Below are positions 2,413 through 60,627 of a stretch of DNA of 64,000 nucleotides, in pieces. Where the stretch lies: assembly GCA_002428985.1 (NCBI GenBank), contig DIYL01000059.1:127573-191572 (forward strand), in the 5' to 3' direction. A program made the position numbers and the translations under genes. Under the pieces are notes generated by a model, which worked only from the letters and a program-made list of their open reading frames with translations, ran no database searches and had not been told where the DNA came from. Numbering within the stretch: position 1 is the stretch's first letter; every line of letters starts with the position of its first letter. The DNA comes from Anaerolineales bacterium UBA6055 (lineage in GTDB: Bacteria; Chloroflexota; Anaerolineae; Aggregatilineales; Phototrophicaceae).

Positions 2413-3006
2413 TTATTCTGCCGGTTCATCATCCAACAGATCCAACTTTGCATATACGCTATTCAAGTCCAGCTTGCAGTCTATTGATGGAAGAAACATG
2501 ATATCATCGCCAAACGCCTTACTATATAACCAATCTCCGTTGTCCTGACGTAGAAATCTTTCAATTTTCTGTTTATCTTGAGAGACCAATACATACTCTT
2601 CAACAGATGGGAGTTGTGTATATTCCTCTAGCTTTTGATTTCTATCAATAATCTCTGTTGATGGTGACAAAACCTCTATAATAACAGTCGGATTCGTAAT
2701 CGTATCACGCCGATTTTCTAGGAATTCAATTTTGCCACATACCACAACTACATCTGGGTAACGATAGCTAATCTTAGCGTCAACTTTAATACGCGTTTCA
2801 CTCGCATTGACAATGCAATCTTTTTGCGCCAGTTGTACCGTCAGGCTACTACTAATATTATTGGCAATCGTATTGTGGCGGACAGTTGCTCCTGTCATTG
2901 CAATAACTTCACCATTTACATATTCATGGCGACTTGCACTCTTATCCTCAAATTCCAGATATTCAGCTTCCGTCATATGGTTTGGATTATACGGTTGTGC
3001 AGACAT
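2413..3006 (-). CDS. Uma2 (DUF820) family endonuclease
   Basis: 197-aa ORF. Has TEAEYLEFE, HEYVNGEVIAMTGAT, RYPDVVVVCG and NPTVIIEVLSPST (PD-(D/E)xK-like core). Close paralog of 52501-53091. Confidence 0.85.
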   Translation of the reverse strand: MSAQPYNPNHMTEAEYLEFEDKSASRHEYVNGEVIAMTGATVRHNTIANNISSSLTVQLAQKDCIVNASETRIKVDAKISYRYPDVVVVCGKIEFLENRRDTITNPTVIIEVLSPSTEIIDRNQKLEEYTQLPSVEEYVLVSQDKQKIERFLRQDNGDWLYSKAFGDDIMFLPSIDCKLDLNSVYAKLDLLDDEPAE

Positions 3007-3040
3007 GGCTATCCTCTCATGCAGTTAACAGAAACTCGTC

Positions 3041-3613
3041 TTATGCATCAAATTCAACATCTAGATAAACATCAACCATCGCCAAATCAACATTGAGAGC
3101 TTCTAATGGAATCGATTCAGTGCGCAAAGTGAATTGTTGTAAAAACCACCCACCATCTTGTCGCGTCGACAACTGTGCATAAAGCTGATTTTGATCAACA
3201 ACGAGGTAATGCTGTAGCGACTCCAAACTCCGATAAAAGTTGGCTTTGATACCCTTATCAAAACTTTCTGACGAAGCCGATGTAACCTCGACTATCAGTG
3301 TTGGATTTATAAGCGTGATATTTTTTTCATCGTCAAATTTAGCTTGACCACAAACAGCACTTACATCCGGATAAAAGTATTTTTTCTCAGCAACTTTTAC
3401 ACGCATCTCACTAGAATGTGTACGACAGCCTGAACCTTTGGTTGCTTGCCACAATGCGCCACCAATATTCAAAATGATTTTGCTATGGGATTCTGTCCCA
3501 CCAGACATTGCATAAATTTCGCCGTCCATATATTCGTGCTTAACATCAGACGCGTCATCAAAAGCGAGATAATCTTCAACTGTCCATTTTTGTATTGGGT
3601 TAGTCGCCATCAA
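3041..3613 (-). CDS. Uma2 (DUF820) family endonuclease
   Basis: 190-aa ORF. Has WTVEDYLAFDD, HEYMDGEIYAMSGGT, FYPDVSAVCG and NPTLIVEVTSASS. Paralog of the frameshifted copy at 28518-29091. Confidence 0.85.
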   Translation of the reverse strand: MMATNPIQKWTVEDYLAFDDASDVKHEYMDGEIYAMSGGTESHSKIILNIGGALWQATKGSGCRTHSSEMRVKVAEKKYFYPDVSAVCGQAKFDDEKNITLINPTLIVEVTSASSESFDKGIKANFYRSLESLQHYLVVDQNQLYAQLSTRQDGGWFLQQFTLRTESIPLEALNVDLAMVDVYLDVEFDA

Positions 3614-3644: not shown

Positions 3645-5201
3645 TCATTCTGTAGACTTTTTATCTTTTTCAACCGCATCATTCTTGAGTTTTTCTGGCT
3701 CAAGCGTCGGCAAAATCCGTTTGAGATACAGCCAAGAAGCATACAGCCCAAACGCCGTCAGAATGATACTAAATGCATATGCAGTGACATAACGCGGGAT
3801 ACGCCCCTGTGTCCACAGCAAAAACGGAAAGATAAACAACATCCCACTCCCAATCGCCACCAGCGCAATATTAAGGGCGACAGATCGAAAATTACGTAGG
3901 ATGTCCCACATGGCGCCAAGACTTAAAGGAATTGCAATGAATACAAAACATACTAAGCTCATTATTGCGGTCACAGTTGGTAGTGAATGTGATTTTGTTT
4001 CTGTGATTTCGGCAACTAGCACGATTAATATGAGAGCATATCCAATCCACCCACATGCCAAAAAAGAGGTAGACCAGCGTCCTGCGTTTTGTCGAATATA
4101 AGCCGTGGAAGTTGTAACCACTAAGAATGCGGTTGCCAGAGCTAGCCAGAGTTCTAAAAACAAACCCTGTTCAACACTGTCCCATCCATGCAATGGCTCT
4201 AGTCCATAGCCTCCAACATTAACCCATTCATAAATGCCAGCAGAGGTACGTACAAGTACACCATCCCACCCCATTGCAAAAATAATGTTTCCACTTTCGG
4301 GGTCAAATGTTGCGTCGAACGGCCCTGGATCATCATTTACCGCATTACTATTGCAATTGAATAGGCATTTCCTGGAGTGTCTCAAAACAGATCTGATTTC
4401 CTTTCGTATCTCAAATAAATCATATTCTGTGATCCAGTTCACACCGTCATGAGAAGTTTCAACAGTTTCTGCTGGAGACCATCTAATTTGTAACTCTGTT
4501 CCAGTAAGTTGTGAAGGAGTATCACATTTTTCAAGATCACTAATCTCTGTAGGCTGCCATGACAAACCACCATCTAGACTTTTATATTCCTTGTGTCCGG
4601 GTCCATTAGGATACTCCGCACCAAATAAAGTAGAGGTATAAAGAAAATTATAAATATCCGTATAGCATATTGCCCGCAAACCATAATCTGGGACTATGTG
4701 AGGCGGACTTGTTGCCAGCGTCCCCAATAATCCTAAACCTAATGCAACATACGCAAACGGCTTGAGTGACACCTTATCATCGCTAGCCTTTTGCCAGATA
4801 TATGCACTGATTATCAAAGCGGGCAATGTCAGTAAATCAGTCACATCGAGGCGCAGTTGCCCCTCCCATCCAACAATCGCATAGAGCGTTTCTGTCGTCA
4901 GATGATGCACAAATGGAATTATCTTCGCTGTCGCAAACCAGACCCCGATAAACCCGATTGACAGCCCACCAACAATGTCTGTATGGCGTTCCAATCGACG
5001 TGGGATAATCCATGCAAACACCAATCCAGCAATAAACGGCGCGAATACCAACCACATAAAATCACCAAGCTTGCCTGTCAGCCATGATGGATGTGCATAG
5101 CGCAACCAGTGATCATTAAAAAGCAGGAACATGATAGCCAATAACGACAGCGGGTGCGTCAGACTATGGAACGCTTTCCAGAAAGCATGATTGTAAGGCA
5201 T
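3645..5201 (-). CDS. Polytopic membrane protein with central Asp-box (BNR-like) ectodomain, tandem paralog B
   Basis: The ORF track extends to 5306, but homology to the upstream paralog starts at the ATG at 5201 (MPYNHAFWKAFHSL). Several hydrophobic helices lie at both ends. SLDGGLSWQ and SHDGVNW match the Asp-box pattern S-x-D-x-G-x-x-W. The start lies 1 nt after the paralog A stop. Confidence 0.7.
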   Translation of the reverse strand: MPYNHAFWKAFHSLTHPLSLLAIMFLLFNDHWLRYAHPSWLTGKLGDFMWLVFAPFIAGLVFAWIIPRRLERHTDIVGGLSIGFIGVWFATAKIIPFVHHLTTETLYAIVGWEGQLRLDVTDLLTLPALIISAYIWQKASDDKVSLKPFAYVALGLGLLGTLATSPPHIVPDYGLRAICYTDIYNFLYTSTLFGAEYPNGPGHKEYKSLDGGLSWQPTEISDLEKCDTPSQLTGTELQIRWSPAETVETSHDGVNWITEYDLFEIRKEIRSVLRHSRKCLFNCNSNAVNDDPGPFDATFDPESGNIIFAMGWDGVLVRTSAGIYEWVNVGGYGLEPLHGWDSVEQGLFLELWLALATAFLVVTTSTAYIRQNAGRWSTSFLACGWIGYALILIVLVAEITETKSHSLPTVTAIMSLVCFVFIAIPLSLGAMWDILRNFRSVALNIALVAIGSGMLFIFPFLLWTQGRIPRYVTAYAFSIILTAFGLYASWLYLKRILPTLEPEKLKNDAVEKDKKSTE

Positions 5202-5202
5202 A

Positions 5203-6744
5203 TCAGACCTCTTTCTTATCTTTTTCAACCGCATCATTCTTGAGTTTTTCTGGCTCGAGTGACGGCAAAATCCGTTTGAGATACAGCCACGACGCATACA
5301 GCCCAAACACCGTCAGCATGATGCTAAATGCATAGGCAGTGACATAACGCGGAATACGCCCCTGTGTCCATAACAAAAACGGAAAGATAAACAACATCCC
5401 ACTCCCAATCGCCGCCAGCGCAATATTAAGAGCGACAGATCGAAAATTACGTAGGATGTCCCACATGGCTCCAAGACTTAAAGGAATTGCAAAAATAAAC
5501 ATTGCACAAAAGCTAACCAACCCTGCAAAAACAGGTACTGAAACAGTCAAACTTCCACCGCTAGCGGATATTGGATCATGACGTTCGAGGATAACTAGTA
5601 TCATAATTAGAACGTAAACTATCCAACTAAAAGAAATTACCTTCTTTCGCCCCATTGAAATGTGATGACGAATATACCATGTTGAAGTGACTATAACTAG
5701 AAAAGCCGTTGCTATAGCAAGACAAAACTCAAGAAAAATCAAATTATGAAAATCAGTTAGCGAAGGGTTTTCAGGAAGATTATAGTGTCCTACTGTAGAC
5801 CAAACATATTTACCATCCGACTGACGAACGAGGACACCATCCCACCCCATTGCAAATATATAATTATCACTAGCTTCATCATATACAACACTATGCGGAC
5901 CAGGATCGTCGAATATTAAGCTAGGACTATAGATATGCAAACGTCGCTTGACATAGCGAGCTTCCTGACGCAAAACTCCAAGATCATAATCGACTTGCCA
6001 TGACTCTCCATTATCTTCTGAAATCTCGATTTTATCGGCATTTGACCAACGAAATTTTGAGGGTGCATTCTCATCTATTGATGAACCTACGCATTCTTTA
6101 TTGTTTTCTTCCCAGCGATCACGCCAATTCAATCCACCGTCGTAACTTTCATAAGTTGTTATATTTCCCCACATAGACTGGGTAGTGACGGATAAAAACT
6201 CACCGTTGTAGCAGATTTCACGAATACCATATTCAGCATATTGTGGACTATCACTCGCAAGTGTCCCCAACAGCCCCAGTCCCAGGGCTACATATGCGAA
6301 CGGCTTGAGCGACACCTTATCATCGCTAGCCTTTTGCCAGATATATACGCTAATTATCAGTGCAGGCAACGTCAGTAAATCAGTGACATCGAGGCGCAGT
6401 TGTCCTTCCCACCCAACAATCGTATAAAGCGTTTCTGTCGTCAGATGATGCACGAACGGAATCGTCTTCGATGTTGCAAACCAGACCCCGATAAATCCAA
6501 TCGACAGCCCACCGACAATATCGGTGTGGTATTCCAATCGGCGCGGGATAATCCATGCAAATACCAAACCAGCAATAAACGGCGCGAATACCAACCATGT
6601 AAAATCGCCAAGCTTACCTGTCAGCCATGACGGATGTGCATAACGCAACCAATGGTCGTTAAACAGCAACAGCATGATAGCAAGCAACGATAGCGGATGT
6701 GTTAGACTATGGAACGCTTTCCAGAAGGGACGATTATAGGACAT
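5203..6744 (-). CDS. Polytopic membrane protein with central Asp-box (BNR-like) ectodomain, tandem paralog A
   Basis: 513-aa ORF. The N-terminal ~165 aa and C-terminal ~95 aa are about 94% identical to paralog B by hand alignment. Central Asp-boxes are SYDGGLNW and SEDNGESW. Confidence 0.7.
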   Translation of the reverse strand: MSYNRPFWKAFHSLTHPLSLLAIMLLLFNDHWLRYAHPSWLTGKLGDFTWLVFAPFIAGLVFAWIIPRRLEYHTDIVGGLSIGFIGVWFATSKTIPFVHHLTTETLYTIVGWEGQLRLDVTDLLTLPALIISVYIWQKASDDKVSLKPFAYVALGLGLLGTLASDSPQYAEYGIREICYNGEFLSVTTQSMWGNITTYESYDGGLNWRDRWEENNKECVGSSIDENAPSKFRWSNADKIEISEDNGESWQVDYDLGVLRQEARYVKRRLHIYSPSLIFDDPGPHSVVYDEASDNYIFAMGWDGVLVRQSDGKYVWSTVGHYNLPENPSLTDFHNLIFLEFCLAIATAFLVIVTSTWYIRHHISMGRKKVISFSWIVYVLIMILVILERHDPISASGGSLTVSVPVFAGLVSFCAMFIFAIPLSLGAMWDILRNFRSVALNIALAAIGSGMLFIFPFLLWTQGRIPRYVTAYAFSIMLTVFGLYASWLYLKRILPSLEPEKLKNDAVEKDKKEV

Positions 6745-7315: not shown

Positions 7316-7496
7316 GACATCCCCCATGATTATATTGTGCGCCCATATCATACCGAATAATCACGCCAAGCGACAGAAAATCTCGGCATAATCTTCAATT
7401 GCAACTAATATAAAGGCCTATGACAATCGGTCATATTCTATTAAGCAAGTCCATGTACAATACGCCTGTTATTTGCCTATTGGATTGGAAAACAAT

Positions 7497-8756
7497 ATGT
7501 TACATCGCCGTCTAGTCGCTCTAATATTGATAATTATCGTGTTTGCTATGCCCACATTCGCACAAGATGTAGAAGTATTATTTAGCGCGACATTCGATGA
7601 TGAGACGATTCCCGATGCCCTCAATATCCAATACGGCACATTCGATACTACAGACGGACAACTTGACTACACTGTGGAGGCAGGTGGCTTTATCGTGATT
7701 CCATCGGGTATTGATTGGACGGACTACGCCATCGAAACCGAACTCACAATTTTAGAGGGTAGTGTGTGGTTGCAAGCACGCACCGGAAGCGATTTATGTA
7801 GCGGCTATTATCTGACACTCAATCCAACCCGCTCAGTTGTCGATTTATCGGTATCTGATACGGAATGCAACTTTACCGTATTAGCAGAAACCGACACAGT
7901 GACGATCCCAACCGGGGCATTCACCGCACGCCTTGATGTTCAGGGAAATCAAATCAGTGCATACCTCAATGATGATCTGATTTTATCAGCAACCGACGAC
8001 CAATTTGTCTCGGGCTATCCAACCCTCAACATCTTCCCAACAGATGAAACTGCACGGGTACAATTTGATAGCATTCAAGTATTTACATTGCCCGATGCCC
8101 CAGCACAAACTGATGCAACACCAGAGGTTATCGAAGAAACCATAGCCCCAGAAACAACACCAGAACCACAACCACTAGTTGATATCGACTTACCACCAGT
8201 CAACGAAATTCCACTCGATGAAGATCCGAATCGCACGATTGAATCACTGGTTGAGCTAGGCTTAATCCCCAATACTGACGGTCAACTCTATACATCTGAT
8301 GCAGTTGTCATCGCTCGCATCGGCGCATGGTTCGAGCCACTGTTTGATGATGTGTCATCTCCCCAAGCCGTTATGTCGGGTAACATCTTCTTCCTGCCAA
8401 ATAACGAGAACGAGACCTGTTTGCTATCGGCACGGATCGAACGTGATGAGCGAGGTACAGCCCAACGTTATCTTGATGTCGGCATAAACGCACTTGATGA
8501 GGTCTTTATTGGTGAGACAGCCGATAACGGCGAATACAGCCTCGCAACACAAGAGGGTATGTTGACTGCATCCGGTGGCAATATCTTGTTCGTTAGTTAT
8601 GGCGACCGTCTCTCGGTTTATGTGAACGGACGCATCGCCTTCCAGAATATTGAAGTCACACGGCGCGATGGTAGCTTCGGCGTATCATCTAACGCGACCA
8701 CATCATTTACAGTCTGCCATGTGACCAATTTGTGGGTCTATACATTTGACGGTTAG
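7497..8756 (+). CDS. Secreted hypothetical protein: two jelly-roll-like modules joined by a Pro/Thr/Glu-rich linker
   Basis: Signal peptide LVALILIIIVFAMPTFAQD follows the ATG at 7497 (the track starts at a TTG at 7473). A PETTPEPQP linker sits mid-protein. The fold assignment is a guess. Confidence 0.55.
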   Translation: MLHRRLVALILIIIVFAMPTFAQDVEVLFSATFDDETIPDALNIQYGTFDTTDGQLDYTVEAGGFIVIPSGIDWTDYAIETELTILEGSVWLQARTGSDLCSGYYLTLNPTRSVVDLSVSDTECNFTVLAETDTVTIPTGAFTARLDVQGNQISAYLNDDLILSATDDQFVSGYPTLNIFPTDETARVQFDSIQVFTLPDAPAQTDATPEVIEETIAPETTPEPQPLVDIDLPPVNEIPLDEDPNRTIESLVELGLIPNTDGQLYTSDAVVIARIGAWFEPLFDDVSSPQAVMSGNIFFLPNNENETCLLSARIERDERGTAQRYLDVGINALDEVFIGETADNGEYSLATQEGMLTASGGNILFVSYGDRLSVYVNGRIAFQNIEVTRRDGSFGVSSNATTSFTVCHVTNLWVYTFDG

Positions 8757-9406: not shown

Positions 9407-10435
9407 ATGATTACTCAGCTCACACAAGCGCAACTCGATCAAATTAAAATATATACGAACAAGTGGAACGATCTGTCTACAACAACTACCCCAGCCAATC
9501 GCCCACAAGCAGAAGACGCGATTCGCCTCGCGTATAAATTAGCCAATTGCAAACAACCAGATCAAATCATCTGGTTTGATTCGCCGATGGCATTATGTGA
9601 TTATCGTACTACGCTAGACACACTCAACCTCCGCTTTAAACTGTTCACCATGATGCAATCCAAAGCAAAACAAGCGATTGCGAAACTGTTTACAGTTGAT
9701 CAATACAATACAATTCGAGTACCCGGCTGGAGTTTGTTTCAAGCAGCCAGTGACACGTTTCAATGGGATGTTGCCATAGCCATAAATAACAAGACCTCGC
9801 ATATGTTTAGCGGACAAATGGTAAGCCCACGAGATGATTCCTATTCAATGTGTCAATATGACTACTGCATCAACATGCTTGGTTTGACCGAGCTATCGCA
9901 ATTTGTGGGTGGTTTGATCGCAGTTGCAGAACATGCCGGATGGTGGTGTCCAACCGAGACAGTCTGCCTTGTTGCCGAACGTCCCTGCGCGGTTCGATAT
10001 GATGCAAACAATGCGATTCATAGTGACAACAGTTGTGCAATTGAATACCCTGATGGCTGGGGCATTTATATGTGGCGTGGTGTTGCCGTACCAGAGCATG
10101 TGATTTTACGCCCGCACGAGATCACACCCGATGAAATTATGTCAGAATGGAATGCCGAAGTCGCCCGTATCATGCTCGACCGCTATGGACAAGATAACTT
10201 CATCCGCAACGGCGGATTCACAATACAACAATCCGATGATTATGGGGATTTGTATCGCATCGAATTCGAGGAGCACGGCGATGAGCCAATCGTTGCTGTC
10301 CATGTTAAAGACCCAAGCACCGACCGTGAATACTTTTTATACGTACCACCACATATCCTCACCGCCCATGAAGGTGTCGCGTGGACATTCGGCTATGACA
10401 ACCCATCCGATTACAATCCACTCAAGGAAACATAA
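9407..10435 (+). CDS. Hypothetical protein, DUF6745-like (family name recalled from memory), tandem paralog 1
   Basis: 342-aa ORF. Has EYPDGWGIYMWRGVAVPEHVI and WNAEVARIMLDRYGQDNFI motifs. The last 93 codons are almost identical to the next gene. Confidence 0.65.
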   Translation: MITQLTQAQLDQIKIYTNKWNDLSTTTTPANRPQAEDAIRLAYKLANCKQPDQIIWFDSPMALCDYRTTLDTLNLRFKLFTMMQSKAKQAIAKLFTVDQYNTIRVPGWSLFQAASDTFQWDVAIAINNKTSHMFSGQMVSPRDDSYSMCQYDYCINMLGLTELSQFVGGLIAVAEHAGWWCPTETVCLVAERPCAVRYDANNAIHSDNSCAIEYPDGWGIYMWRGVAVPEHVILRPHEITPDEIMSEWNAEVARIMLDRYGQDNFIRNGGFTIQQSDDYGDLYRIEFEEHGDEPIVAVHVKDPSTDREYFLYVPPHILTAHEGVAWTFGYDNPSDYNPLKET

Positions 10436-10452
10436 ACAAAAAGCATAAGGTC

Positions 10453-11538
10453 ATGATTACAAAACTAACAATCAGCCAAATCAGTCAACTTAAAGCATAT
10501 GTCGAAAAGTGGCAAAATATGCAAATCCTGACTCAGTCAGCAGATCGCTATGCGACTGAATATAGTGTCTGGGTCGCGTATGCCAACGCTGGATTACCTC
10601 CACCTCAAAAAATTGTCTGGCTTCAGTCTCCTTATGAGATGTTAGAATCGATCAAAAAAGTGCTATCAAATGATCCGAAGCTATTCAAAAAATTGGCAGG
10701 GAAAAATGTTACTTCAAAAATTGAGCGGTCTATTTTTCAGGAATTTAATGATGTAATGCAAACATCTCTAGACAGTAAAATTCATAATGTCTTAAAAATG
10801 ATTTTTAGGTTAGTTACCCGTGACTCAACATACTTAACTACTGTCGACCATATTGATAGATCATTAGAGAGAACATTCCGGCGATATATACGTCAATCTG
10901 GTAAGCGTGTATATATCCCGTTTCCGTCCAATACACAAAGACTCTATCAACCACTCTATTGGCATTACGCACGCCACGAATTAGGTCTCTTAGAAGAAAC
11001 CAAAAATTTAGCAAACCTACACGCCATTCCTAAGAACGTAGACTATTGGTTATCTTTTGAAAATATATGTTTTTTATCAGAGCAACCTGAATACATCAGC
11101 TTAGATGAACATGGTAGATTACATTCTGAAAATCGAGCAGCCCTATCATATGCTGACGGTTGGGAGATATATGTATGGCACGGAGTGCTGGTTCCAGAGT
11201 ATGTGATTATGTATCCAGAAGATATTACACCAAATAGGATTATCGAGGAGCGCAATCGTGAAGTCGCCCGTATCATGCTCGAACGCTATGGACAAGATAA
11301 CTTCATCCGTAACGGCGGATTCACAATACAACAATCCGACGATTACGGGGATTTATATCGCATCGAATTCAAGAATCACCGCGATGAACCAATCGTTGCC
11401 GTCCATGTTAAAGACCCAAGCACCGACCGTGAATACTTTTTATACGTGCCACCACATATCCGCACCGCACATGAAGGTGTTGCATGGACATTCGGCTATG
11501 ACAATCCATCCGATTACAATCCGCTCAAGGAAACGTAG
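10453..11538 (+). CDS. Hypothetical protein, DUF6745-like, tandem paralog 2
   Basis: 361-aa ORF. Has SYADGWEIYVWHGVLVPEYVI and NREVARIMLERYGQDNFI. The N-terminal two thirds are AT-richer and only weakly similar to paralog 1. Confidence 0.65.
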   Translation: MITKLTISQISQLKAYVEKWQNMQILTQSADRYATEYSVWVAYANAGLPPPQKIVWLQSPYEMLESIKKVLSNDPKLFKKLAGKNVTSKIERSIFQEFNDVMQTSLDSKIHNVLKMIFRLVTRDSTYLTTVDHIDRSLERTFRRYIRQSGKRVYIPFPSNTQRLYQPLYWHYARHELGLLEETKNLANLHAIPKNVDYWLSFENICFLSEQPEYISLDEHGRLHSENRAALSYADGWEIYVWHGVLVPEYVIMYPEDITPNRIIEERNREVARIMLERYGQDNFIRNGGFTIQQSDDYGDLYRIEFKNHRDEPIVAVHVKDPSTDREYFLYVPPHIRTAHEGVAWTFGYDNPSDYNPLKET

Positions 11539-11751: not shown

Positions 11752-11811
11752 GGAGTATACGTATGAATTGTCGAAAGTGTCCTTAGGGACTACTGTTTGG
11801 AGGTATATACC

Positions 11812-14313
11812 GTGCCGAATAAAATGGAACGCTTTACACAGCGGGCGCGGCGCGTACTGAGCTTGGCGCAAGAAGAGGCAGAACGTTTACAGCACCATCA
11901 AATTGGGACTGAACATCTTCTCCTTGGACTTATGCGCGAAGAAGGTGGCGTAGCTGGTCGAGTTCTGCGTGATTTAGGCTTAGACCTTCGCCGTGTAGAA
12001 GAATTAGTCACCCGTCTATCAACCTCGGAAAATAAATCTACCAATACCCAACTGGATTTGTCACCCGGCACAAAAAAGGTGCTGGAACTTGCTGTTGATG
12101 AAGCCCGTCGTATGGGTCATCATTATATTGGCACCGAACACTTATTACTGGGGTTAGTCCGTCAACAGGAAGGCATTGCACTGGATGTATTGCGTCGTCT
12201 CGGCGTCAGTCCAGAGGAAGTGCGCCGTCAAACGCGTAAAGTCCTGCAAGAAAGTCCTGTTCAATCCACACAACAAAATAAAGAACGCCCACAGAATAAA
12301 CCACGTCAAAGTGGTGACAAGACACCGCTTGTCGATCAATTAGCAACCGACCTGACTGCCCTCGCACAAGATGGCAAGCTCGATCCTGTTGTTGGTCGTG
12401 AGATGGAAATTGAGCGTGTGATCCAAGTTCTCAGCCGTCGTCGTAAAAACAATCCAGCCCTCATCGGTGAACCCGGTGTTGGTAAAACTGCGATTGTCGA
12501 AGGATTGGCGCAACGTATTATCGAAGGCGACACACCAAAGCCATTGTTGAACAAACGTGTGCTTCAGTTGGATGTCGGCTCCTTGGTTGCTGGCACAATG
12601 TACCGTGGTCAGTTCGAAGAACGCCTCAAACGCGTGATTGAAGAACTCAAATCATCTGACACCATTCTCTTCATTGACGAAGTCCATATGCTCGTCGGTG
12701 CAGGGTCAGCTGGTAGCAGTGTTGATGCCGCTAACATTCTAAAACCCGCTCTCGCGCGTGGTGAATTGCAATGTATTGGTGCAACCACACTCGATGAATA
12801 CCGTAAACACATCGAAAGTGACGCAGCACTCGAACGTCGTTTCCAACAAATCCAAGTTGATGAACCGACCATCGAAGAAACCATCGAAATTTTACAGGGC
12901 ATTAAATACCCTTATCAAGATCATCACAATGTAGAAATTACAGACGAAGCAATCGAAGTCGCGGCAAACTTATCCGCCCGTTACATTCCAGATCGCTTCT
13001 TACCAGACAAAGCAATCGACCTGATTGATGAAGCGGCTGCTCGTCTGCGTATGTACAAAAGCCCAGAAGCTGCATCCGTCCGTCGAATCACTGACGAACT
13101 CGATGTACTCCGTGACGAAATCGAATTGGCAACCGAGGATGACGATCAAGAAGAAATCGAAAGCCTCAAAACCCGTGTCGAATCATTAGAAGCATCCCTC
13201 AACGATGTCCAAGCAAATTGGAATGACGAAACCGGTCAACCACGTCTCGTCGGCGAAGACATCAGCGAAGTTGTTGCTATGTGGACAGGCATTCCTGTTA
13301 CCCGCATCGCCAATGAAGAAAGCGAACGCTTAATGGAGATGGAATCCAAACTCCACGAGCGTATCGTCGGACAAGACGACGCGATTGTTGCCATTAGTAA
13401 AGCGGTTCGTCGAGCCCGCGCTGGTCTCAAAGACCCACGCCGTCCAATCGGTTCATTTATGTTCCTTGGCCCAACAGGTGTTGGTAAAACTGAATTGACG
13501 AAAGCACTTGCCGAATTCTTATTTGGTAGCGAAGACGCCTTAATTCAACTCGACATGAGTGAATTTATGGAACGTCACTCCGTTGCACGTCTCGTTGGTG
13601 CGCCTCCAGGATATGTCGGTTACGAAGACGCAGGTCAATTGACCGAAGCCGTTCGTCGCCGTCCATACAGCATCATCGTGTTTGACGAAATCGAAAAAGC
13701 CCATCCAGAAGCCTTCAATATGTTATTGCAGGTGATGGAAGAAGGTACATTGACGGATGCACGCGGTCGCCGTGTTGACTTCCGTAACGCAATGATTGTC
13801 ATGACCAGCAACGTCGGTGCAGACCTCATCAAACGCAACTCAGGTCTTGGGTTCACAACCCCGCTTGACGGCGAAAAACTCGACGACGAAGCCTACGAAG
13901 ATATGAGCAAGAACGTCATTGACCAATTGCGCCGTATGTTCCGTCCAGAGTTCTTGAACCGTGTTGATGCCAGCATTATCTTCCGCTCACTCAGTCGTGA
14001 AGAAATCAAGCAAATCGTTGACCTAGAACTAAACAAAGTTCGTGAACGCCTGCTTGAACATGCGATTACCCTCGAAGTTGCTGACGAAGCACTCAGCTGG
14101 TTAGCTGAAAATGGCTACGATGCCGAATTTGGTGCGCGTCCATTGCGCCGCTTGATTCAGCAAGAAGTTGAAGATGCCCTATCAGACGGTATTCTGTCCG
14201 GTGACTTCAGCCTAGCGAGTGTGATCCGTGCCGAAGTTGACGACGACGATAACATTGTCCTCCGCAACATAGAAGACGATGAAATCGCTGACGAGCTCGA
14301 AGCACAAGTCTAA
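11812..14313 (+). CDS. ClpC-class AAA+ ATPase (two Clp_N repeats, two AAA modules, short middle domain without a clear UVR signature)
   Basis: Clp_N repeats (GTEHLLLGL twice); Walker A GEPGVGKT and GPTGVGKT; Walker B ILFIDE and [14 protein letters not shown] at 11799-11803 favours the GTG at 11812; the ATG at 11824 (MERFTQRA) is the alternative. The track starts at a TTG at 11797. Confidence 0.9.
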
Positions 14314-14399: not shown

Positions 14400-16097
14400 T
14401 TATGTTATCGAGTTATCATCTGGGCCACTACTATTGGATTTCTTCAGACCAGAGACAGCCGTATCATCACCACCTGCACCGATATAATTCTGCTGTGAGG
14501 CAAACTGCTGTAGCATTGTATTGACTTCCTTCAACGGCTCCAGCAATACATCTTCTGTGATTTCTTCTGGTGCAAGAACAGTTGGTGCAGTCGGTATACC
14601 AACTTCTTCTGTCGGTGCGGTCGGGATTCCGGCAACTTCCTCATCACTGCGCCCTGTCGCTAGACTCGGACGCGCAAAATAGATAATCTCTGATAGTTCA
14701 GCCGGATCCGTTAGATCGTAGGTCTTACCGCGCACACGATTCCCCGAATTCCCCTCGATTGTATGGATAGTCTTTGTATCGGAGTCATATCTTTCGACTA
14801 GCGTTGTATGGCTTGCCCGCTTAAATTTACCTTTTACAGAATACACATTCGCATTGGCATACTTATCATTGCCATCTTTGGTGGAGTCACTACTGCGTAC
14901 ATCCATAATATCGCCTGCCTGCGGCGTAAAGCCTTGATCTTCAAAGAAGGTGTCGATCGTTTCTTTCTTCTGCTCAGCGTCATCCTTCAAATCTGCGATG
15001 TCACGTGTCAACTTATTGAGCTCAACCTTCTTCTTGAAGTTGGCTTTAGAATCATCATTTTTGCTACTTGTCCCGAGCATCCCACCACCATATTCTTCGC
15101 TCAGGTCATAATTCTTATATGTCTCGCCCTTTCGAGCAAATGTCCCGATAACTTTATAACCCGATGCTTGATGGAATTTTTTGATGCCTGTCAGTTTGCG
15201 ATAATTATACGTCGCAAACCACGCACACCAATTTGCACCGCTATTTTTACTGTAGGCTTCAATCATCTCCCCTTGGTTTTTATCGGTGGTCTCCCAATTC
15301 TTACCCCCCTCATGCAAAATCGAACCCAAGAAAAATTCCATACGAGCGATAGCCGCAGCCGCTTCACCAAGAATGCGCGTTTTCTCATCAGCAACGGGTG
15401 TTTCTTGCTGGACAAATGTATCCACCATGTCGGGATATGATGGCGATATATCGAGCAGACCACGCACCGTCTCAACCAGATTCATGGCAGCTGCTTGTCG
15501 CGCTTCTTCGCGCTCTTTGGCATTCTCAATACTTTCAGTGAGTTTAATCTTCTGGAGCGCAATCATTGTCTTGTGACGATAACGCGCTTTGACTGCCTCT
15601 TTTTTCTTATTACGCGCTTGCATATATCCACGTGGATTATCATCGGGATTTATACTTTCCAATTGTTCTGACCAATAAGCCACACGCGCATTATTCAATA
15701 GGCGCAGATTCGACGCTGCCCCCGTTAACCGCACTTCAGTTTTTTCGATTTCATCGGCTTCGAGGTAAGCTTCTATCGTTTCAATCTTACGATCAACTTC
15801 ATATATCGCGTAGCTATTTGCGGTCGATTCATTAATGGACTGATTCAAAATGGGTGCATCCGGATCCACAGGTGCACGTTGGATCAAGCGATTGACAAAG
15901 TGATTACCATGTGTCTGACTAAAAAGCCGGATAGCATGTGGATTAAGCTGAGTCGGATCATTGAGAGCCCGTTGCATGAGCGAAATATCCAATCCCGACA
16001 TCGTTGGAACTGATGATTTACCAAGCGAAGATAATGATTTTAGGGCTGTCGATTCGCATTTAGTAGAGGACTTATCCTGTGTTTGTTTGGCTGTCAC
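14400..16097 (-). CDS. Effector-like protein: N-terminal GNxxVxRLIQ leader, coiled-coil region, C-terminal CHAP/NlpC-P60-type cysteine hydrolase
   Basis: The ORF is open to 16190. I prefer the GTG at 16097 (weak GGGA 7 nt upstream); the ATG at 16001 is also possible. Leader LFSQTHGNHFVNRLIQR is encoded at 15876-15926. Catalytic-type segments are NWCAWFATYNYR, SHTTLVE and TIEGNSGN. Confidence 0.65.
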   Translation of the reverse strand: MTAKQTQDKSSTKCESTALKSLSSLGKSSVPTMSGLDISLMQRALNDPTQLNPHAIRLFSQTHGNHFVNRLIQRAPVDPDAPILNQSINESTANSYAIYEVDRKIETIEAYLEADEIEKTEVRLTGAASNLRLLNNARVAYWSEQLESINPDDNPRGYMQARNKKKEAVKARYRHKTMIALQKIKLTESIENAKEREEARQAAAMNLVETVRGLLDISPSYPDMVDTFVQQETPVADEKTRILGEAAAAIARMEFFLGSILHEGGKNWETTDKNQGEMIEAYSKNSGANWCAWFATYNYRKLTGIKKFHQASGYKVIGTFARKGETYKNYDLSEEYGGGMLGTSSKNDDSKANFKKKVELNKLTRDIADLKDDAEQKKETIDTFFEDQGFTPQAGDIMDVRSSDSTKDGNDKYANANVYSVKGKFKRASHTTLVERYDSDTKTIHTIEGNSGNRVRGKTYDLTDPAELSEIIYFARPSLATGRSDEEVAGIPTAPTEEVGIPTAPTVLAPEEITEDVLLEPLKEVNTMLQQFASQQNYIGAGGDDTAVSGLKKSNSSGPDDNSIT

Positions 16098-16274: not shown

Positions 16275-16829
16275 ATGGCGATTCAACCCATTACAAAAAT
16301 TACAGCCGAATCGTACTTTGAATTAGAGGACTATCAAACACATGACCTTATTCAACTCGTCAATGGTGAGGTAATTATTGGTATGCCACCTATTCCGAAC
16401 CACCAACGCATTGTGCGCGAAATCTTGGTTATGCTGACCTTACTGGCACGTAAAATTGGTGGTGAGGCATTCGACTCTCCTATTGAATTATATCTCGACG
16501 AACACAATGTCTTCGAACCCGATGTACTTTATATGTCACCAAACAGCAAATGTGAGGTGAAAGGTAAACGATTAGAAGGCGCACCCGAACTCATCGTCGA
16601 AGTCCTCTCACCAAGTACAGCCAAATATGACAAGCGTGAAAAATATGCCACCTACGAACAACATGGCGTACAAGAATACTGGATTGTTGACCCAGTCCAC
16701 GAATTAATTGATGTGTGGGCATTAGATGGTGGCAAGTTTGTACATCAAGGCGCATACAGCACTGACGACACATTCAAGTCACAAGTACTCAAGGCCGATG
16801 TCGAAGTAAAGACACTGTTTGATAGTTAG
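16275..16829 (+). CDS. Uma2 (DUF820) family endonuclease
   Basis: 184-aa ORF. Has AESYFELED, LVNGEVIIGMPP, EPDVLYMS and APELIVEVLSPST. Confidence 0.85.
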   Translation: MAIQPITKITAESYFELEDYQTHDLIQLVNGEVIIGMPPIPNHQRIVREILVMLTLLARKIGGEAFDSPIELYLDEHNVFEPDVLYMSPNSKCEVKGKRLEGAPELIVEVLSPSTAKYDKREKYATYEQHGVQEYWIVDPVHELIDVWALDGGKFVHQGAYSTDDTFKSQVLKADVEVKTLFDS

Positions 16830-28517: not shown

Positions 28518-29091
28518 ATGGCAACCAATCCGCTTGATCGCAAATGGACAGCCGAAGAATATTTAGCCTACGATGACGCATCCGATATTCGCCATGAATT
28601 TCTCAACGGTAAACTTATTGCAAAAATCTATGAAACATCCAATCATAGCATCATTGTTTCAAATACATCCGCTATATTGTGGCAACTAGCCCGCAAAAAT
28701 GCTTGTCGTGCCCGCCTATAATCAAATGCTAACTAAAATTAACAATGATACCTATTTCTATCCTGATGTGTTGGTAACATGTGGAAAATCAGAATATGAA
28801 ACTGAAAATAATACAATGCCCCTAAACCCAACCGTCGTCATTGAAGTTACCTCAAAATCATCGGAAACATTTGACAAGGGCTTAAAAGCTGAGCTATATC
28901 GCAGTATTGAATCAGTCAAAGTGTATCTCGTCATCGACCAGCATCGTGTCTTTGCCCAACTATCAACCCGTCAACACAATGGTTGGCTTTTGCAGGAATT
29001 CACAAAAATCCATCAAGCGATTCCATTGAGATCAATTAATGTCGATTTGCCTCTCAGTGATGTCTATCTCGATATAGAGTTTGAAAGTTAA
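28518..29091 (+). pseudogene. Uma2 family endonuclease, frameshifted
   Basis: ORFs 28518-28721 and 28699-29091 together align end-to-end with the 3041-3613 protein. The frame changes around 28705-28718. The AMSGGT-type segment is also degraded (IAKIYETSNH). Confidence 0.75.
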
Positions 29092-31442: not shown

Positions 31443-31877
31443 ATGGCAACCAATATGCAAGAAGTTGATAGCCTCGTCGCAAATGAGTTTTCAGTTGAGG
31501 TTGATGGTAATGAAGTGCAAGGTGTGTTCAGTGTTGAAGGGTTGACATTGTTTCAACTGAGTGACGACGGAACACGCATGAATCCCGCATTGAAAATCAC
31601 CAAAATGGTACAACGCGATGCCAGCTTACCGTTCAATCAATGGCACAAAGAAACAATGGACAGCCGCGATTCGGATACCCGTCCAACCCGTACATTAGCT
31701 GTTGTTGCAATTGATGATGGTGTCGAGACCCGTCGCTGGACATTAAAAGATGCCTATATCACAAGCATTAGCTATTCTAATTATGACGCCGGCTCATCGG
31801 AAATGATTGAAGAACAATATACCATTGCCTACAACGATATTGAAGAAACTTGGACATTCGCGGATTCTAACGCGTAG
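31443..31877 (+). CDS. Contractile-tail tube-like protein (T4 gp19 / eCIS tube family pattern), orphan
   Basis: 144-aa ORF with GGAG 9 nt upstream. FSVEVDGNEVQGVFSVEGL, LPFNQWHKE and RRWTLKDAYITSISYSNYDAGSSEMIEEQYTIAYNDIE follow the conserved layout of tail-tube proteins as I recall it. Confidence 0.65.
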   Translation: MATNMQEVDSLVANEFSVEVDGNEVQGVFSVEGLTLFQLSDDGTRMNPALKITKMVQRDASLPFNQWHKETMDSRDSDTRPTRTLAVVAIDDGVETRRWTLKDAYITSISYSNYDAGSSEMIEEQYTIAYNDIEETWTFADSNA

Positions 31878-35420: not shown

Positions 35421-36041
35421 TTAATTCGCCCAAACTTTTTTAAATTTCAGACCTGTCAGATTATTCTCTTCGACGATTTGCTTGAAATCATCATTCACAT
35501 ATATCCCACTACGCCTTTGCTCCTTTAATTTAAATATGGTTGTGTTATTCGTACAATCTGGCTCAAACGAATACTTTAGAATTTTTGAAATTGTTCCACT
35601 TTTCAGATACTGGAATTCTGAATTATTATGATCAAGGCAATCAACTATCTCTACAGGATTTATAATATAGTATATTGTCTCTGTATTAATAGTATCTTCG
35701 TCTGTATAATAGACTAGGGGTAGGAATTCAATAGAGCTACCAACTACTTCCTGAATAATCACTTTGGTTTTTGAATCACATACTGGAAATCCAGATAGAC
35801 TTATAAAATTAGGAATATTTTTCTCATTATCAAAATCATATGGGTCAAACCTTACATTCAATGGTTTCCAATCGTCCAATCTAGATGAACCATCTAAAAT
35901 AGGTATGATATCAACCCGCTCGTTTCGAGTTCCCAAATATTTGTAATTCTTAGTATCAACCTGCAAAAGCCACACCCTGGGCACAATTATCTCCTCCGAA
36001 TAATTATTAAAGTCGTGAAGTTTCTTAAATGTTGTGTTCAA
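35421..36041 (-). CDS. Hypothetical protein (immunity-protein-like, DUF1629/Imm-type by loose recollection); start uncertain
   Basis: 206-codon ORF with no ATG codon at all. It opens at a TTG at 36041 without an RBS. Strongly AT-rich. The C-terminal segment reads IYVNDDFKQIVEENNLTGLKFKKV. Confidence 0.4.
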   Translation of the reverse strand: MNTTFKKLHDFNNYSEEIIVPRVWLLQVDTKNYKYLGTRNERVDIIPILDGSSRLDDWKPLNVRFDPYDFDNEKNIPNFISLSGFPVCDSKTKVIIQEVVGSSIEFLPLVYYTDEDTINTETIYYIINPVEIVDCLDHNNSEFQYLKSGTISKILKYSFEPDCTNNTTIFKLKEQRRSGIYVNDDFKQIVEENNLTGLKFKKVWAN

Positions 36042-36220: not shown

Positions 36221-38641
36221 TTATTCATCACCATCAATTGTAAAAGTCCCGAGCACAATCGTATTGTCTTGTGCACCTTCCACATTGGTTAACACATCAT
36301 AGCGTATCGCATCCGGTAACGCATACCATCCCGTCAACACCAGATAATCACCCGCAGGCAACTCACTAATATCCAGTGATAGGGTCTCGGTCCACTGTCC
36401 ATCACGTTCACCATCGCCGATATTATCATCAGCTTGTGCCACCAACCGTCGGTTTTCATCAAGGATATGGATGAATCGAATATCCGTCTGAGCCCGGGGA
36501 TTCTCTAGACGCCACCATAGACGCACAGCCGAATCTGAGGCGAAGTCCTCTGGCATGAAAAACGACGCCAACTCAATCCCATCTTCCAGCCGTATCGGGT
36601 CATAAATTGGGCCATCTGTAAACGATACGATTTCAATATCGCTGATCGTCACATCCCGACACACTAAAATCTCAGCGTTAAAGCGCACAGGGCATGGCGG
36701 ATCAAGTTCAATATGGAAAGTATTATACCCACGACGACCAATTGGTAATGGCACAGACAAGCGTTGTGTGCCATCAATCGTCCATGTATGAACCCGCTCA
36801 TCATTCAACAAAAGATGAATCGTCCGATTATCAGCGGTAAATGTCGCCGTATATTCGAGCCACCCCGGTTGTTCTTTGTAGATATAAGTAGTGTTCTGTC
36901 GTTCATCCGGCGTAACAGTATAAACACTATCCGGTTCAGCTGTCATAATTGGCGTTTCATAAATCGCATATCGATCATCTTCATAAATCGCTGCTCCAAG
37001 ATGAATCAAAGCACGATTCTGCAATGTCTCGAGCATATTCATCTGTGACGCACGTTGCTTATTGATAATCACAATATCGGCGCCTGCATCTGTCAATAAT
37101 GGCGTTTCCATCGTCGACAGCAATTCCAATCGCGCCGGATCAATCGGTGTTTCACGTGCGACTTGTCCAGCAATCAGCGCTTTATTATGAGCAGTCTGTA
37201 GAAAGAGAGCTTCTTTCGCCGACAGCAAATTATCATGGGGAACATTAAATACAGCCCGAATATCAGTACGATCAGCCAGTTCGTGAATCGCTTGAGGTAT
37301 CTGTGCAGTTTGCATCGGGAAAGACTCAAAGAATTGGTAATCACGAAAAATGAGCACCGCAAGCAAAATCACTGCCAGATAACGGACAAATTTTCTGGAA
37401 TTCCGTACCCATCCACTCGTCCAAATGAACGCCATACCATATCCAGCCATCATCGCAAACGCCAATGCGAATAAGAACATAAATCGCCCCGGCGTCCGTG
37501 CAAGCTCAAAAATAGGCAACTCCATAAATAGCGCATACGGTAATGGCACAATCGTCTCATATCCCGCGACACCTATCGTCACAGGTTGGTCGAGTACTTT
37601 GAGTACAGGACCTAACGCGAATATCCATGCGACAACTGCTACCAATAACCACCAGCGCGAGTTGCGATGACTCAACACACCGATCAATGCGAGGAACAGG
37701 CCAATTACGCCAACATAACTCGAGCCTTCAGCAATGTTCGTTCCTAAAACGAGCGATGAGTATTGGGTAATGTCCGACCAAAATGGATTCAAAAATGAGG
37801 GACTAGCCAGCCCTAATAAATCAATACTGAAACGGACAAACCCGCCAGATTCAACATATTGTGACGTCCCTAGCGTATCGCCAACTGTCGGGAAAAGATA
37901 AATCAGCAGCACCACACCACCGACCAACCCGACCGTCACAACCCGCGTGACCCCAATCCAAATGCGATTATACAACTGAGCAAACAGAAATAACGCCATC
38001 AGAGGCAACAATAAATAGATGACCTGTAACGCATGACCACTGGGTGACAAGACAAAGAAGATAACAGATAACCCGAACCAGCGTCGCCGCCCAGTATCGA
38101 TATATTGAAACAAGGCGTACACAAGCAATGGTACACCCCACTGCACCATCAACCCCGCATGACCATCAAACAGATGCCCCTGAAACACCGGAAAAATCAT
38201 AAAGATCAAACCCGCAATCAAAGCAGGCGTATGATGTTCATGTCCAAGGCGATGACGCGCAAGAAAATACATCGCCCATCCATTTAATGCCATCGTTAGC
38301 AATATTGTAATGTTGTACGCCGTAGCAATCGGCATCACGAACGTAAACACCCACATCGGGAAAAACTGTAACGGGTTCGCCCACAACGTCACACCCGAAA
38401 ATCCCTCAGGATACCCTAAGTTCGATTGCCAGAAGATGTCTTCACCAGTTTGGATTGCTGTTTTAAACCACCAGACATGCCGTGCCATCTCATAGGCATC
38501 ACTTGTATCCCCTCCAATAAACGCTGTCGAAAGCGAAGTCACCGCCGGATATGTCACTCCGATAGCAACCAATAAATAGAGCAGATAGACCAATACATGA
38601 TGGCGTGGAATCTGTTTGAGCACAGCAATTTCCTCATTCAC
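36221..38641 (-). CDS. Large polytopic membrane protein, GT-C-like (ArnT/PMT/YfhO-type) glycosyltransferase candidate with C-terminal extracytoplasmic domain
   Basis: 806-aa ORF. About 12 or more hydrophobic helices fill the first ~440 aa, followed by a soluble ~350-aa domain. No diagnostic motif was verified. Confidence 0.55.
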   Translation of the reverse strand: MNEEIAVLKQIPRHHVLVYLLYLLVAIGVTYPAVTSLSTAFIGGDTSDAYEMARHVWWFKTAIQTGEDIFWQSNLGYPEGFSGVTLWANPLQFFPMWVFTFVMPIATAYNITILLTMALNGWAMYFLARHRLGHEHHTPALIAGLIFMIFPVFQGHLFDGHAGLMVQWGVPLLVYALFQYIDTGRRRWFGLSVIFFVLSPSGHALQVIYLLLPLMALFLFAQLYNRIWIGVTRVVTVGLVGGVVLLIYLFPTVGDTLGTSQYVESGGFVRFSIDLLGLASPSFLNPFWSDITQYSSLVLGTNIAEGSSYVGVIGLFLALIGVLSHRNSRWWLLVAVVAWIFALGPVLKVLDQPVTIGVAGYETIVPLPYALFMELPIFELARTPGRFMFLFALAFAMMAGYGMAFIWTSGWVRNSRKFVRYLAVILLAVLIFRDYQFFESFPMQTAQIPQAIHELADRTDIRAVFNVPHDNLLSAKEALFLQTAHNKALIAGQVARETPIDPARLELLSTMETPLLTDAGADIVIINKQRASQMNMLETLQNRALIHLGAAIYEDDRYAIYETPIMTAEPDSVYTVTPDERQNTTYIYKEQPGWLEYTATFTADNRTIHLLLNDERVHTWTIDGTQRLSVPLPIGRRGYNTFHIELDPPCPVRFNAEILVCRDVTISDIEIVSFTDGPIYDPIRLEDGIELASFFMPEDFASDSAVRLWWRLENPRAQTDIRFIHILDENRRLVAQADDNIGDGERDGQWTETLSLDISELPAGDYLVLTGWYALPDAIRYDVLTNVEGAQDNTIVLGTFTIDGDE

Positions 38642-52500: not shown

Positions 52501-53091
52501 CTATCCATCCAGCAAATCTAGTTTAGCGTAGACTGCTGATAGATCTAATTCGCAATCGATAGAAGGCAGTTTAATGATGCCATCCAACCCGCTAATCCGT
52601 GTATAAAGCCAATTGTCCGCATCTTGACGCAAAAATCGTTCAATCTTAAATTCATCCTGCGAGACAAGTACGTATTCTTCTAAAGATAACAGTTGGGTAT
52701 GTTCATCAAATTTCTGATTGCGATCAATCAGGGCAGTAGCTGGAGATAGCACCTCAATTAATACAGTAGGGTTGAGGATCGTGTCATTACGATTCTCCAT
52801 AAACTCAACTTTGCCACATACAACGATAATATCAGGAAAACGATAACTAATAGAGCTTTTCGAGTCTACTTGAACCCGCGTTTCATTTGTATTGATGACG
52901 CAATCTTTATTGCCGAGTTGATTACCAAGTGAGCGATCAATATTATGGATAATCGTATTATGTCGAACTGATGCACCAGTCATTGCAAGCACTTCGCCAT
53001 TGACGTATTCATAACGAATATCACTTTCATCGCATAAGTCAAAATATTCTTCTTGCGTCATATAGCGATTTTCATAGGGTGGTGCCGACAT
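52501..53091 (-). CDS. Uma2 (DUF820) family endonuclease
   Basis: 196-aa ORF. Roughly 65-70% identical by eye to the 2413-3006 protein (YEYVNGEVLAMTGAS, FPDIIVVCG, NPTVLIEVLSPAT). Confidence 0.85.
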   Translation of the reverse strand: MSAPPYENRYMTQEEYFDLCDESDIRYEYVNGEVLAMTGASVRHNTIIHNIDRSLGNQLGNKDCVINTNETRVQVDSKSSISYRFPDIIVVCGKVEFMENRNDTILNPTVLIEVLSPATALIDRNQKFDEHTQLLSLEEYVLVSQDEFKIERFLRQDADNWLYTRISGLDGIIKLPSIDCELDLSAVYAKLDLLDG

Positions 53092-53207
53092 AGTCCGCCC
53101 TTATTTACCTTGTCATGTATTATTCAATTATATCATGCTAGCCATCATAAATTCGGAAGTAATTGATCGAGTAGTGTCTGCTCATCAATCAAATAAGTGG
53201 GATTTGA

Positions 53208-53795
53208 CTATTCATCATATATATCTGAGTTAGAGTAGATTATCGACAAGAGTAACGTACAGTCAATCGACGATATATAGATTTCGTCATCAATATCAGT
53301 ACGAATACGATACAACCAATCGTCACTGTCGTGTCTAGAGTAATGTTCTACACAACAGTCATCTTCTGATATGAGCAGGTAATCCATCACTGATGGTGTG
53401 GACAGATACTCATGTAATTTATCTTGTCGATCGATTAAAGCAGTTTCAGGGGATACAATTTCAACCAGCATAATCGGATTCATAATGCAGTCATCACGAT
53501 CTTTATACAAATCAGGTTGCCATTTTGTCACTAGTACATCAGGAAACCGAAACGTATTAACAGGTGATAACCACACCCGAATTTGTGATCCTAATACTGC
53601 TAAATCAGATTGATTCTTTAAGGACATACCAAGTAATACCCCAACATTTGTTGAAATAATATTGTGATTCGCATTTTTCCCATGTCGCATATAAACGACG
53701 TCATATGCATACTCATTTGGGCGATCAACTAACGCTTCATATTCAAAATATTCTTCTTCAGTCATGCGTAGTGCATACTTTGGAATAAATGGCAT
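53208..53795 (-). CDS. Uma2 (DUF820) family endonuclease, divergent
   Basis: MTEEEYFEYE, FPDVLVTKW and NPIMLVEIVSPET motifs. GGAGAG lies 8 nt upstream of the ATG at 53795; the ORF is open to a GTG at 53819. Confidence 0.7.
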   Translation of the reverse strand: MPFIPKYALRMTEEEYFEYEALVDRPNEYAYDVVYMRHGKNANHNIISTNVGVLLGMSLKNQSDLAVLGSQIRVWLSPVNTFRFPDVLVTKWQPDLYKDRDDCIMNPIMLVEIVSPETALIDRQDKLHEYLSTPSVMDYLLISEDDCCVEHYSRHDSDDWLYRIRTDIDDEIYISSIDCTLLLSIIYSNSDIYDE

Positions 53796-53839
53796 ATCAG
53801 GCTCTCCGTATAATGACACGCCAATTATAGCAAATCGCC

Positions 53840-60605: not shown

Positions 60606-60627
60606 TACTTGTCCAATTTATAATTAA

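Follow-up and report, generated by a model that had tools for sequence, protein, structure and literature searches.

Toxins of the extracellular contractile injection systems (eCIS) have as their marker the domain DUF4157 (PMC8213781, PMC11297309, PMC3482391), which is now named eCIS_core (PF13699) and has also been called 'PVC-metallopeptidase'. In AlgoCIS, the cargos Cgo1 and Cgo2 (PMC8894135; bioRxiv 10.64898/2026.05.27.728243) consist of a disordered N-terminus, an optional DUF4157 domain and a variable C-terminal domain, and the region N-terminal to DUF4157 is required for their loading into the tube lumen, DUF4157 itself being dispensable (bioRxiv 10.64898/2026.05.27.728243). PVC payloads, which unlike cargo of the DUF4157 type do without this domain, carry on the N-termini of unrelated effectors a transferable packaging signal of ~50 residues that is recognised by the AAA+ ATPase Pvc15 (PMC11495950). 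Among the contractile injection systems (CIS) and type VI secretion systems (T6SS) of haloarchaea, the DUF4157 effectors of Halogeometricum are encoded far from the cluster, yet their secretion is CIS-dependent (PMC11566945). Here we analysed a stretch of 64,000 nucleotides from the Anaerolineales bacterium UBA6055 (Chloroflexota; contig DIYL01000059.1, positions 127,573 to 191,572), hereafter called the window, in which two genes, A and B, 45 kb apart, encode products that share a short motif near the N-terminus and otherwise have nothing recognisable in common. We propose, at a probability of roughly 0.6, that both are modular effectors or toxins of the polymorphic-toxin kind tied to extracellular and other contractile injection systems (the 'PVC-type' toxins of Aravind), that they are orphan cargo, and that the leader around the motif is a loading signal.

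How does this pair compare with the described systems? The products of A and B resemble the eCIS_core toxins in the leader motif, in its distance from the start (for A, if translation begins at the GTG at 16097) and in a modular design that joins a constant N-terminus to a variable C-terminal domain, in A and B a candidate toxin, and relatives of the domain of A carry DUF4157; they differ in that the HExxH-containing DUF4157 domain of those toxins is present in neither of them and in that neither gene lies beside a CIS operon. As Geller 2021 and Danov 2024 use the term, an eCIS-associated toxin (EAT) is encoded no more than some ten genes away from an eCIS operon, or else its genome contains such an operon; no such cluster was found around A and B in the window or its reachable flanks. 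The likeness to Cgo1 and Cgo2 is one of described architecture and of the loading through the N-terminal region that we propose for A and B; the Cgo genes lie inside their cluster. The likeness to the PVC payloads is one of design, no similarity of their signals to the present motif being known. The orphan effectors of haloarchaea are encoded far from their apparatus cluster, as A and B would be, and are secreted in dependence on that apparatus; they differ in having both DUF4157 and downstream immunity partners, of which A and B show neither. The two genes and their parts are as follows.

14400..16097, minus strand: gene A, an orphan gene for a leader-bearing, predicted CHAP-type peptidase; its reading frame is open to 16190, and the database call P0012 starts at 15977.
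15876..15932, minus strand: the leader motif of gene A, IRLFSQTHGNHFVNRLIQR, a degenerate form of LQxxxGNxAVxRL(L/I)QR, with profile rank 2 of 1070.
14670..15260, minus strand: the predicted CHAP-like alpha/beta catalytic core of A, in which NWCAWF contributes the conserved Cys (15225-15227) and SHTTLV the His, and which also has an EGN triplet.
60640..62463, plus strand: gene B, an orphan gene for a leader-bearing protein of a rare family; the called product P0001 has 607 aa, and the longest reading frame is 60628..62463.
60745..60798, plus strand: the B copy of the leader motif, ILNMQQTLGNQAVMRMLQ, canonical in form, with profile rank 1 of 1070.
60853..60864, plus strand: IQRM, the second conserved leader element of the B family, invariant in its alignment.
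61915..62001, plus strand: the invariant HADRHxEN ... GIDNDS stretch of B (columns H426-N433 and G449-S454), candidate catalytic and metal-binding loops of kinase type.

The minus-strand translation of positions 15876-15926 reads LFSQTHGNHFVNRLIQR, and the regular expression GN..[VLIMA].[RK][LMIV][LIMV] has two matches in the six-frame translation of the window, one in gene A and one in gene B. A BLASTP comparison of the two products leaves the motif unreported, its best alignment (E 0.36) lying elsewhere in the proteins, and because pairwise comparison misses the motif, the pair by itself is not significant. Profiles that excluded the sequence under test were run against the 1070 six-frame open reading frames (ORFs) of the window. 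With a small hidden Markov model (HMM) made from 17 motif copies from relatives of the C-terminal domain of A, A itself and its nearest relative P0027 being left out, gene B was the best of all ORFs (E 8.9e-6). With a large HMM of 91 copies, all from loci of metagenomes and genomes that have no relation to the window, B ranked first (E 1.6e-12) and A second (E 0.0053), the third ORF reaching E 2.2. The motif copy is canonical in B and degenerate but significant in A, and P0027, the closest relative of A, has the same variant as A (LLLSRVHGNWFVTRLVQR). The shared N-terminal motif that a sequence-only reading had seen in the products of 14400-16097 and 60628-62463 is therefore real, being ranked at the top by a profile independent of the window, and the statement of that reading that the downstream domains differ completely was confirmed by the Pfam and BLASTP comparisons.

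From sampling in two directions, one starting from DUF4157 and the other from the motif, we conclude that DUF4157 toxins and proteins without DUF4157, such as those of A and B, have a modular N-terminal leader in common, of which the motif forms the core. With an alignment of the DUF4157 domain, 13 'viral' contigs were retrieved, as were 80 loci in named genomes that span many phyla. In the viral contigs (2553 ORFs) the motif profile matches five ORFs, four of which encode DUF4157 and bear the motif upstream of it; the remaining one is the adjacent gene. The genome loci comprise 16,633 ORFs, 152 of them with DUF4157; at a threshold of E < 0.1, 34 are motif-positive, namely 23 of the 152 DUF4157 ORFs (15%) and 11 of the ~16,500 others (0.07%), an enrichment of roughly 200-fold, and the reversed-sequence control of these loci gave one match. 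In the 23 DUF4157 ORFs the motif always lies in the N-terminal part, upstream of the domain in all but one, and several of the 11 others clearly adjoin a DUF4157 gene. The motif starts at a median of 41 residues in the genome loci, and its carriers include Actinomycetota, Chloroflexi, cyanobacteria, Acidobacteriota, Nitrospirota, Desulfobacter, a metagenome-assembled genome (MAG) of Gammaproteobacteria, and Methanosarcina; the range given in the sequence-only reading (Actinobacteria, Cyanobacteria and Chloroflexi) is thus contained in a wider one.

In the other direction, a degenerate DNA pattern for I-L-x-h-Q-x-x-x-G-N-Q-A-V found at least 120 stretches in metagenomes, of which 80 loci with 89 in-frame matches were examined; one of them, in L142, is a clear false positive. 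Among the matches listed, to which all domain, position and neighbour counts from this sample refer, the motif starts at a median of 39 residues after the first methionine (interquartile range 36-45; 28-65 in 74 of 76), and eCIS_core is present on 24 of 48 complete motif proteins. The other carrier domains are Tse3 muramidase, Peptidase_M15_4, PG_binding_1, OmpA, Aspzincin_M35, Peptidase_C70, Peptidase_C2, AHH nuclease, CHAP, an ADP-ribosyltransferase toxin, Het-C and RGS. The suggested tie to DUF4157 and eCIS is supported by these searches, half of the complete motif proteins having eCIS_core and 23 of 152 DUF4157 ORFs having the motif, and the carriers beyond that half bear varied toxin-like domains. 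The N-terminal placement of the motif is fixed across the family. For A and B themselves, a placement of 45-95 residues from the N-terminus had been given, which hinges on the start codon: the first residue of the motif is residue 36 of the called product of B, inside the range of 28-65, and residue 40 of its longest ORF, and in A it is residue 16 with the database start, 56 with a GTG at 16097 or 87 in the longest ORF. As for a variable toxin-like C-terminus, A has a predicted domain of CHAP type, and B has no recognised domain and weak kinase-like signals.

The leaders fall into recognisable subfamilies, with frequent extensions xSGxxQAKL, LQRKCACGG and GDxYEQEADRVAxQVM, and xQR or IQR elements recur in the leaders of DUF4157 proteins, like IQRM in the B family. 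Extra leader motifs were also seen, MRTFAQKxKxxQQTT at the extreme N-terminus and LQRKCACGG...C..C, as were side-by-side arrays of two to five leader genes, for example five in a Methanosarcina locus (L034). Other searches returned less. A word-index search with a 51-residue leader profile gave only short fragments for which there were no Pfam data, with the motif on unrelated N-termini; a strict canonical DNA pattern found two viral contigs only, one of them a chance match in the wrong frame; and of the locus searches with motif alignments, one attempt was without a conserved stretch and another confirmed 1 of 38 candidates.

A word-index protein search with A recovered nothing but P0012 (525 aa), the shorter called product of A itself. 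From a full HMMER scan, which covered 1.84 billion representatives, came 131 relatives that have the C-terminal two-thirds of A in common and variable N-termini. An independent motif profile finds the canonical motif within the first 133 residues of 13 of the 131, and DUF4157 is present on 13 others; the predicted toxin domain of A therefore recombines with the leader or with DUF4157 among these relatives. In an alignment of 78 members, Cys251 (in a Trp-Cys pair), His390 and the triplet E408-G409-N410 of A are at least 90% conserved, and the Pfam matches of these relatives are to CHAP in 46 of 78 (best E 2.2e-8), to eCIS_core in 10 and to PG_binding_1 in 6. Gene A itself falls below every Pfam threshold and gave nothing significant in Pfam, NCBIfam or PDB sequence searches; its match to TIGR02594 is weak (E 0.0099). 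The AlphaFold model based on this alignment is confident (pLDDT 84, pTM 0.87) and runs from a helix containing the motif (residues 13-34 of P0012, pLDDT about 60-68) through a helical domain to the alpha/beta core, and a Foldseek search of the PDB with the whole model gave no significant match, CHAP reaching only E 1.1. On the conserved residues and the matches of its relatives, A is predicted to be a divergent CHAP-type cysteine peptidase or amidase, the substrate of which is probably peptidoglycan. It is like the CHAP and NlpC/P60 hydrolase toxins (PF05257; TIGR02594; 'Tox-NLPC/P60', PMC3482391) in the Cys, the His, the EGN triplet and the alpha/beta core, and differs from them in having a helical domain of ~190 residues before the core and an inserted helical segment, and in lying below the Pfam thresholds.

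Because the motif at residue 16 would fall outside the family range, the database start of A at 15977 probably truncates most of the leader. The GTG at 16097 has GGGAGA in front of it, the leader that it yields has the usual length for the family, the extra residues that it adds (TAKQTQDKSSTK...) resemble the polar starts of other leaders, and it is the start that we prefer. Gene A sits between a ClpC gene and a Uma2 gene, amid housekeeping genes, and a Pfam survey of the larger ORFs of the window revealed no obvious immunity gene adjoining it.

The family of gene B is very small. In a collection of 5.8 billion proteins it comprises P0001 and ten other clusters at 40-59% identity, and its alignment keeps IL-x-LQ-x-x-x-GN-x-AV and the subsequent IQRM, while the flanking residues vary freely. 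The leader is present in every homologue for which the N-terminus is available. One homologue, P0011, from a locus of 68% G+C, has the leader DILGLQHAAGNRAVARLAAG...IQRMPS in frame upstream of its annotated start, and we consider this start to be mis-called for that reason. No Pfam domain is found in the family, and searches of Pfam, NCBIfam and PDB sequences with B brought no significant match. TIGR03843 has a sub-threshold match in 11 of 11 family members (best E 1.2e-3, far under the cut-off) and PI3_PI4_kinase (PF00454) has one in 1 of 11 (E 0.11); the PVC-type toxins of a published list include a 'Tox-peptide kinase' with DxHxEN (PMC3482391). The AlphaFold model of B is poor (pLDDT 54), and a Foldseek search of the PDB with it gave no significant match; for these reasons a kinase-like activity of B is a guess.

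Gene B lies between two regulator genes.

58116..60410, minus strand: a GerE(LuxR)-NB-ARC-TPR regulator, divergent from gene B; the syntenic homologue P0003 is paired in the same way.
62477..64000, minus strand: a second regulator, GerE-NB-ARC/AAA-TPR, cut by the window end and divergent from P0004, a paralogue of B.

P0004 lies just past the right end of the window, has 639 aa, is 49% identical to B and bears the same leader. On this arrangement, 58116..64000 together with P0004 is a tandem duplication of a regulator-effector module. STAND-type regulator genes with AAA_16, TPR and GerE domains also lie near two other orphan leader genes, small ORFs in other assemblies (L228, 14963..17920; L230, 6291..9052), echoing the pairing at B, and eCIS loci have been associated with GerE-type regulators (PMC8213781).

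The sequence-only reading had suggested that this genome scatters such proteins away from any apparatus genes. No CIS cluster lies in the window, but the suggestion is not quite right, since a single apparatus-type gene is situated between A and B.

31443..31877, plus strand: an isolated T4 gp19 or eCIS tail-tube gene, the sole apparatus-type gene in the window (PF06841, E 9.2e-10, 38.9 bits against a cut-off of 28.2).

Its product has 144 aa, the precomputed annotation agrees with PF06841, and the gene is flanked by those for a 334-aa uncharacterised membrane protein and for a response regulator, with no further tail or CIS genes in its surroundings. Co-occurrence with tube genes is observed elsewhere: in a jackhmmer search seeded with the window tube, 32 of the 80 genome loci have a gp19-type tube no more than 10 kb from the DUF4157 gene, as do 7 of the 18 motif-bearing ones. 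Around the motif-first genes, the commonest families among 133 neighbours are eCIS_core (12), Baseplate_J (4) and Tail_P2_I (3), the remainder being housekeeping. On these neighbour families and the co-occurrence with tubes, we conclude that some leader genes lie inside CIS clusters and that many are orphans. Scans of the viral contigs with the window tube and with tubes of Chloroflexi and Actinomycetota type gave no match and recovered no CIS cluster, and jackhmmer found no tubes in the motif-first metagenome loci, the flanks of which are short, tubes lying at the far end of CIS operons.

How might the leader act? We envisage that each protein would begin with a polar or basic, mostly disordered stretch, followed by a short helix with h-L-x-L-Q-(R)-x-x-G-N-x-A-V-x-R-L-L and one or more xQR elements, and would end in a variable effector domain, of CHAP type in A and a rare DRHxEN / IDND kinase-like domain in B. 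The leader would be a recognition element through which the protein passes to the injection particle and enters the lumen of its tube, probably via the AAA+ ATPase of the injection system. On this view A and B would count as 'orphan' cargo genes that lie apart from the apparatus; B and its paralogue each sit under a divergent LuxR-type STAND regulator. We infer the loading role by analogy with Cgo1 and Cgo2, in which the stretch N-terminal to DUF4157 was shown to play it, and among the mechanisms considered a packaging or loading signal is the best supported. A bolder version, which we hold tentatively and consider somewhat doubtful, is that the LQxxxGNxAVxRLL helix, about 39 residues in, is a CIS docking signal used across phyla of bacteria and archaea and sufficient without DUF4157.

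Several observations weigh against the proposal that A and B are loaded cargo. No CIS cluster was found in the 64 kb window or in 10 kb flanks by a Pfam survey of the larger ORFs, none of the B homologues in two other genomes has CIS genes within 10 kb, and no CIS genes were found near three other leader-bearing orphans either. The window tube is divergent as well as isolated, being only 21-25% identical to CIS tubes of Chloroflexi and Actinomycetota. Neither A nor B matches PF13699 at E values up to 1, and no HExxH is visible by eye. The motif of A is weak when taken alone, scoring just E 0.7 with the 17-copy HMM. Finally, the authors of the AlgoCIS study regard loading sequences as unconserved between systems (bioRxiv 10.64898/2026.05.27.728243).

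Could the resemblance of A and B be a chance match of a short peptide? The failure of BLASTP to report the motif and the small-profile score of A would fit such an explanation, which we nevertheless consider scarcely credible and have rejected on the ranks given by independent profiles: the 91-copy profile places both genes far ahead, with nothing else below E 2, the position of the motif is kept throughout the B family, 13 relatives of A carry it and the nearest relative of A has the same variant, and the reversed-sequence control argues against an artefact of composition. A different explanation sees A and B as relics or as repurposed genes, their leaders being inherited from ancestors that were CIS cargo. 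The organism would then lack a functional apparatus, and the proteins would either serve the producer itself, A for instance in autolysis, or be released through lysis or in some other way. The lack of a CIS cluster near A, B, the B paralogue and the B homologues, the isolation and divergence of the window tube gene, the drift of the motif of A from the consensus and the want of an immunity gene adjoining A are all in keeping with this. We judge it unlikely, since the leader of the B family has been kept across genomes of 44% to 68% G+C, which argues for selection on the leader, since B has been duplicated along with its regulator and the ORFs of A and B are intact, and since published effectors that depend on a CIS are often far from its cluster (PMC11566945).

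The leader might instead be a pro-region or processing site that is recognised or cleaved by a DUF4157 (PVC-type) metallopeptidase, either in cis or encoded by a neighbouring gene, so that the toxin stays inactive until its release. Zhang et al. 2012 proposed DUF4157 as a releasing peptidase (PMC3482391); the motif stands just upstream of DUF4157 in 23 ORFs, several carriers without the domain adjoin a gene that has it, and the repeated xQR and LQRK elements of the leaders are potential cleavage sites. We regard this explanation as quite improbable for A and B, in that loading in AlgoCIS needs the N-terminal region and not DUF4157 (bioRxiv 10.64898/2026.05.27.728243). Moreover, Cgo1 is toxic regardless of its HExxH motif, DUF4157 is absent from about half of the motif proteins, and no DUF4157 lies near A or B within the window.

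If the leader is indeed a loading signal, CIS cargo could be found from sequence anywhere in a genome, beyond the neighbourhood of the operon and beyond DUF4157, and the window would contain two effectors: A, a CHAP-type cell-wall hydrolase and likely an antibacterial payload, and B, a member of a very rare family (11 clusters in 5.8 billion proteins), possibly a kinase-like toxin, that has been duplicated with its LuxR-type STAND regulator. With a defined short motif of fixed position, one would also have a practical means to engineer the loading of cargo and to probe what the apparatus recognises. Should the docking version hold, a simple profile would suffice to detect orphan cargo throughout a genome, new effector families such as that of B among it; the motif would then serve as a loading tag that is portable and defined by its sequence, against the current view, in which the loading sequences of eCIS are merely disordered and system-specific. 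Proteins of this kind are already known. The generalisation at the level of the motif may be new, because a literature search that included written forms of the motif found no description of it, because no database entry for the leader family was found and because the AlgoCIS preprint calls loading sequences unconserved.

Other genes of the window may be noted. An immunity protein of the Imm11 family of polymorphic-toxin systems is encoded at 35421..36041 (minus strand; E 1.5e-15), with no recognisable toxin gene beside it; its neighbour at 36221..38641 encodes an 806-aa protein without a Pfam match that, from its hydrophobicity judged by eye, is apparently membrane-spanning. The segments 3645..6744 (minus strand), 7473..8756 (plus strand) and 9407..11538 (plus strand) form a region with ORFs that have no Pfam match and with two tandem DUF6745 paralogues; two of the former overlap (553 and 513 aa) and one has 427 aa, and they are without the leader motif. 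Two Clp-type chaperone genes with double AAA+ domains (ClpC/ClpB-like) lie at 11797..14313 (plus strand) and 41823..44414 (minus strand), and both belong to the housekeeping Clp clade and not to the CDC48-like ATPases typical of eCIS. At least six genes for putative endonucleases of the Uma2 family are found in the segments 2413..3613, 16275..16829, 28518..29091 and 52501..53819, and one of them is split into the overlapping ORFs 28518..28721 and 28699..29091, which suggests a frameshift.

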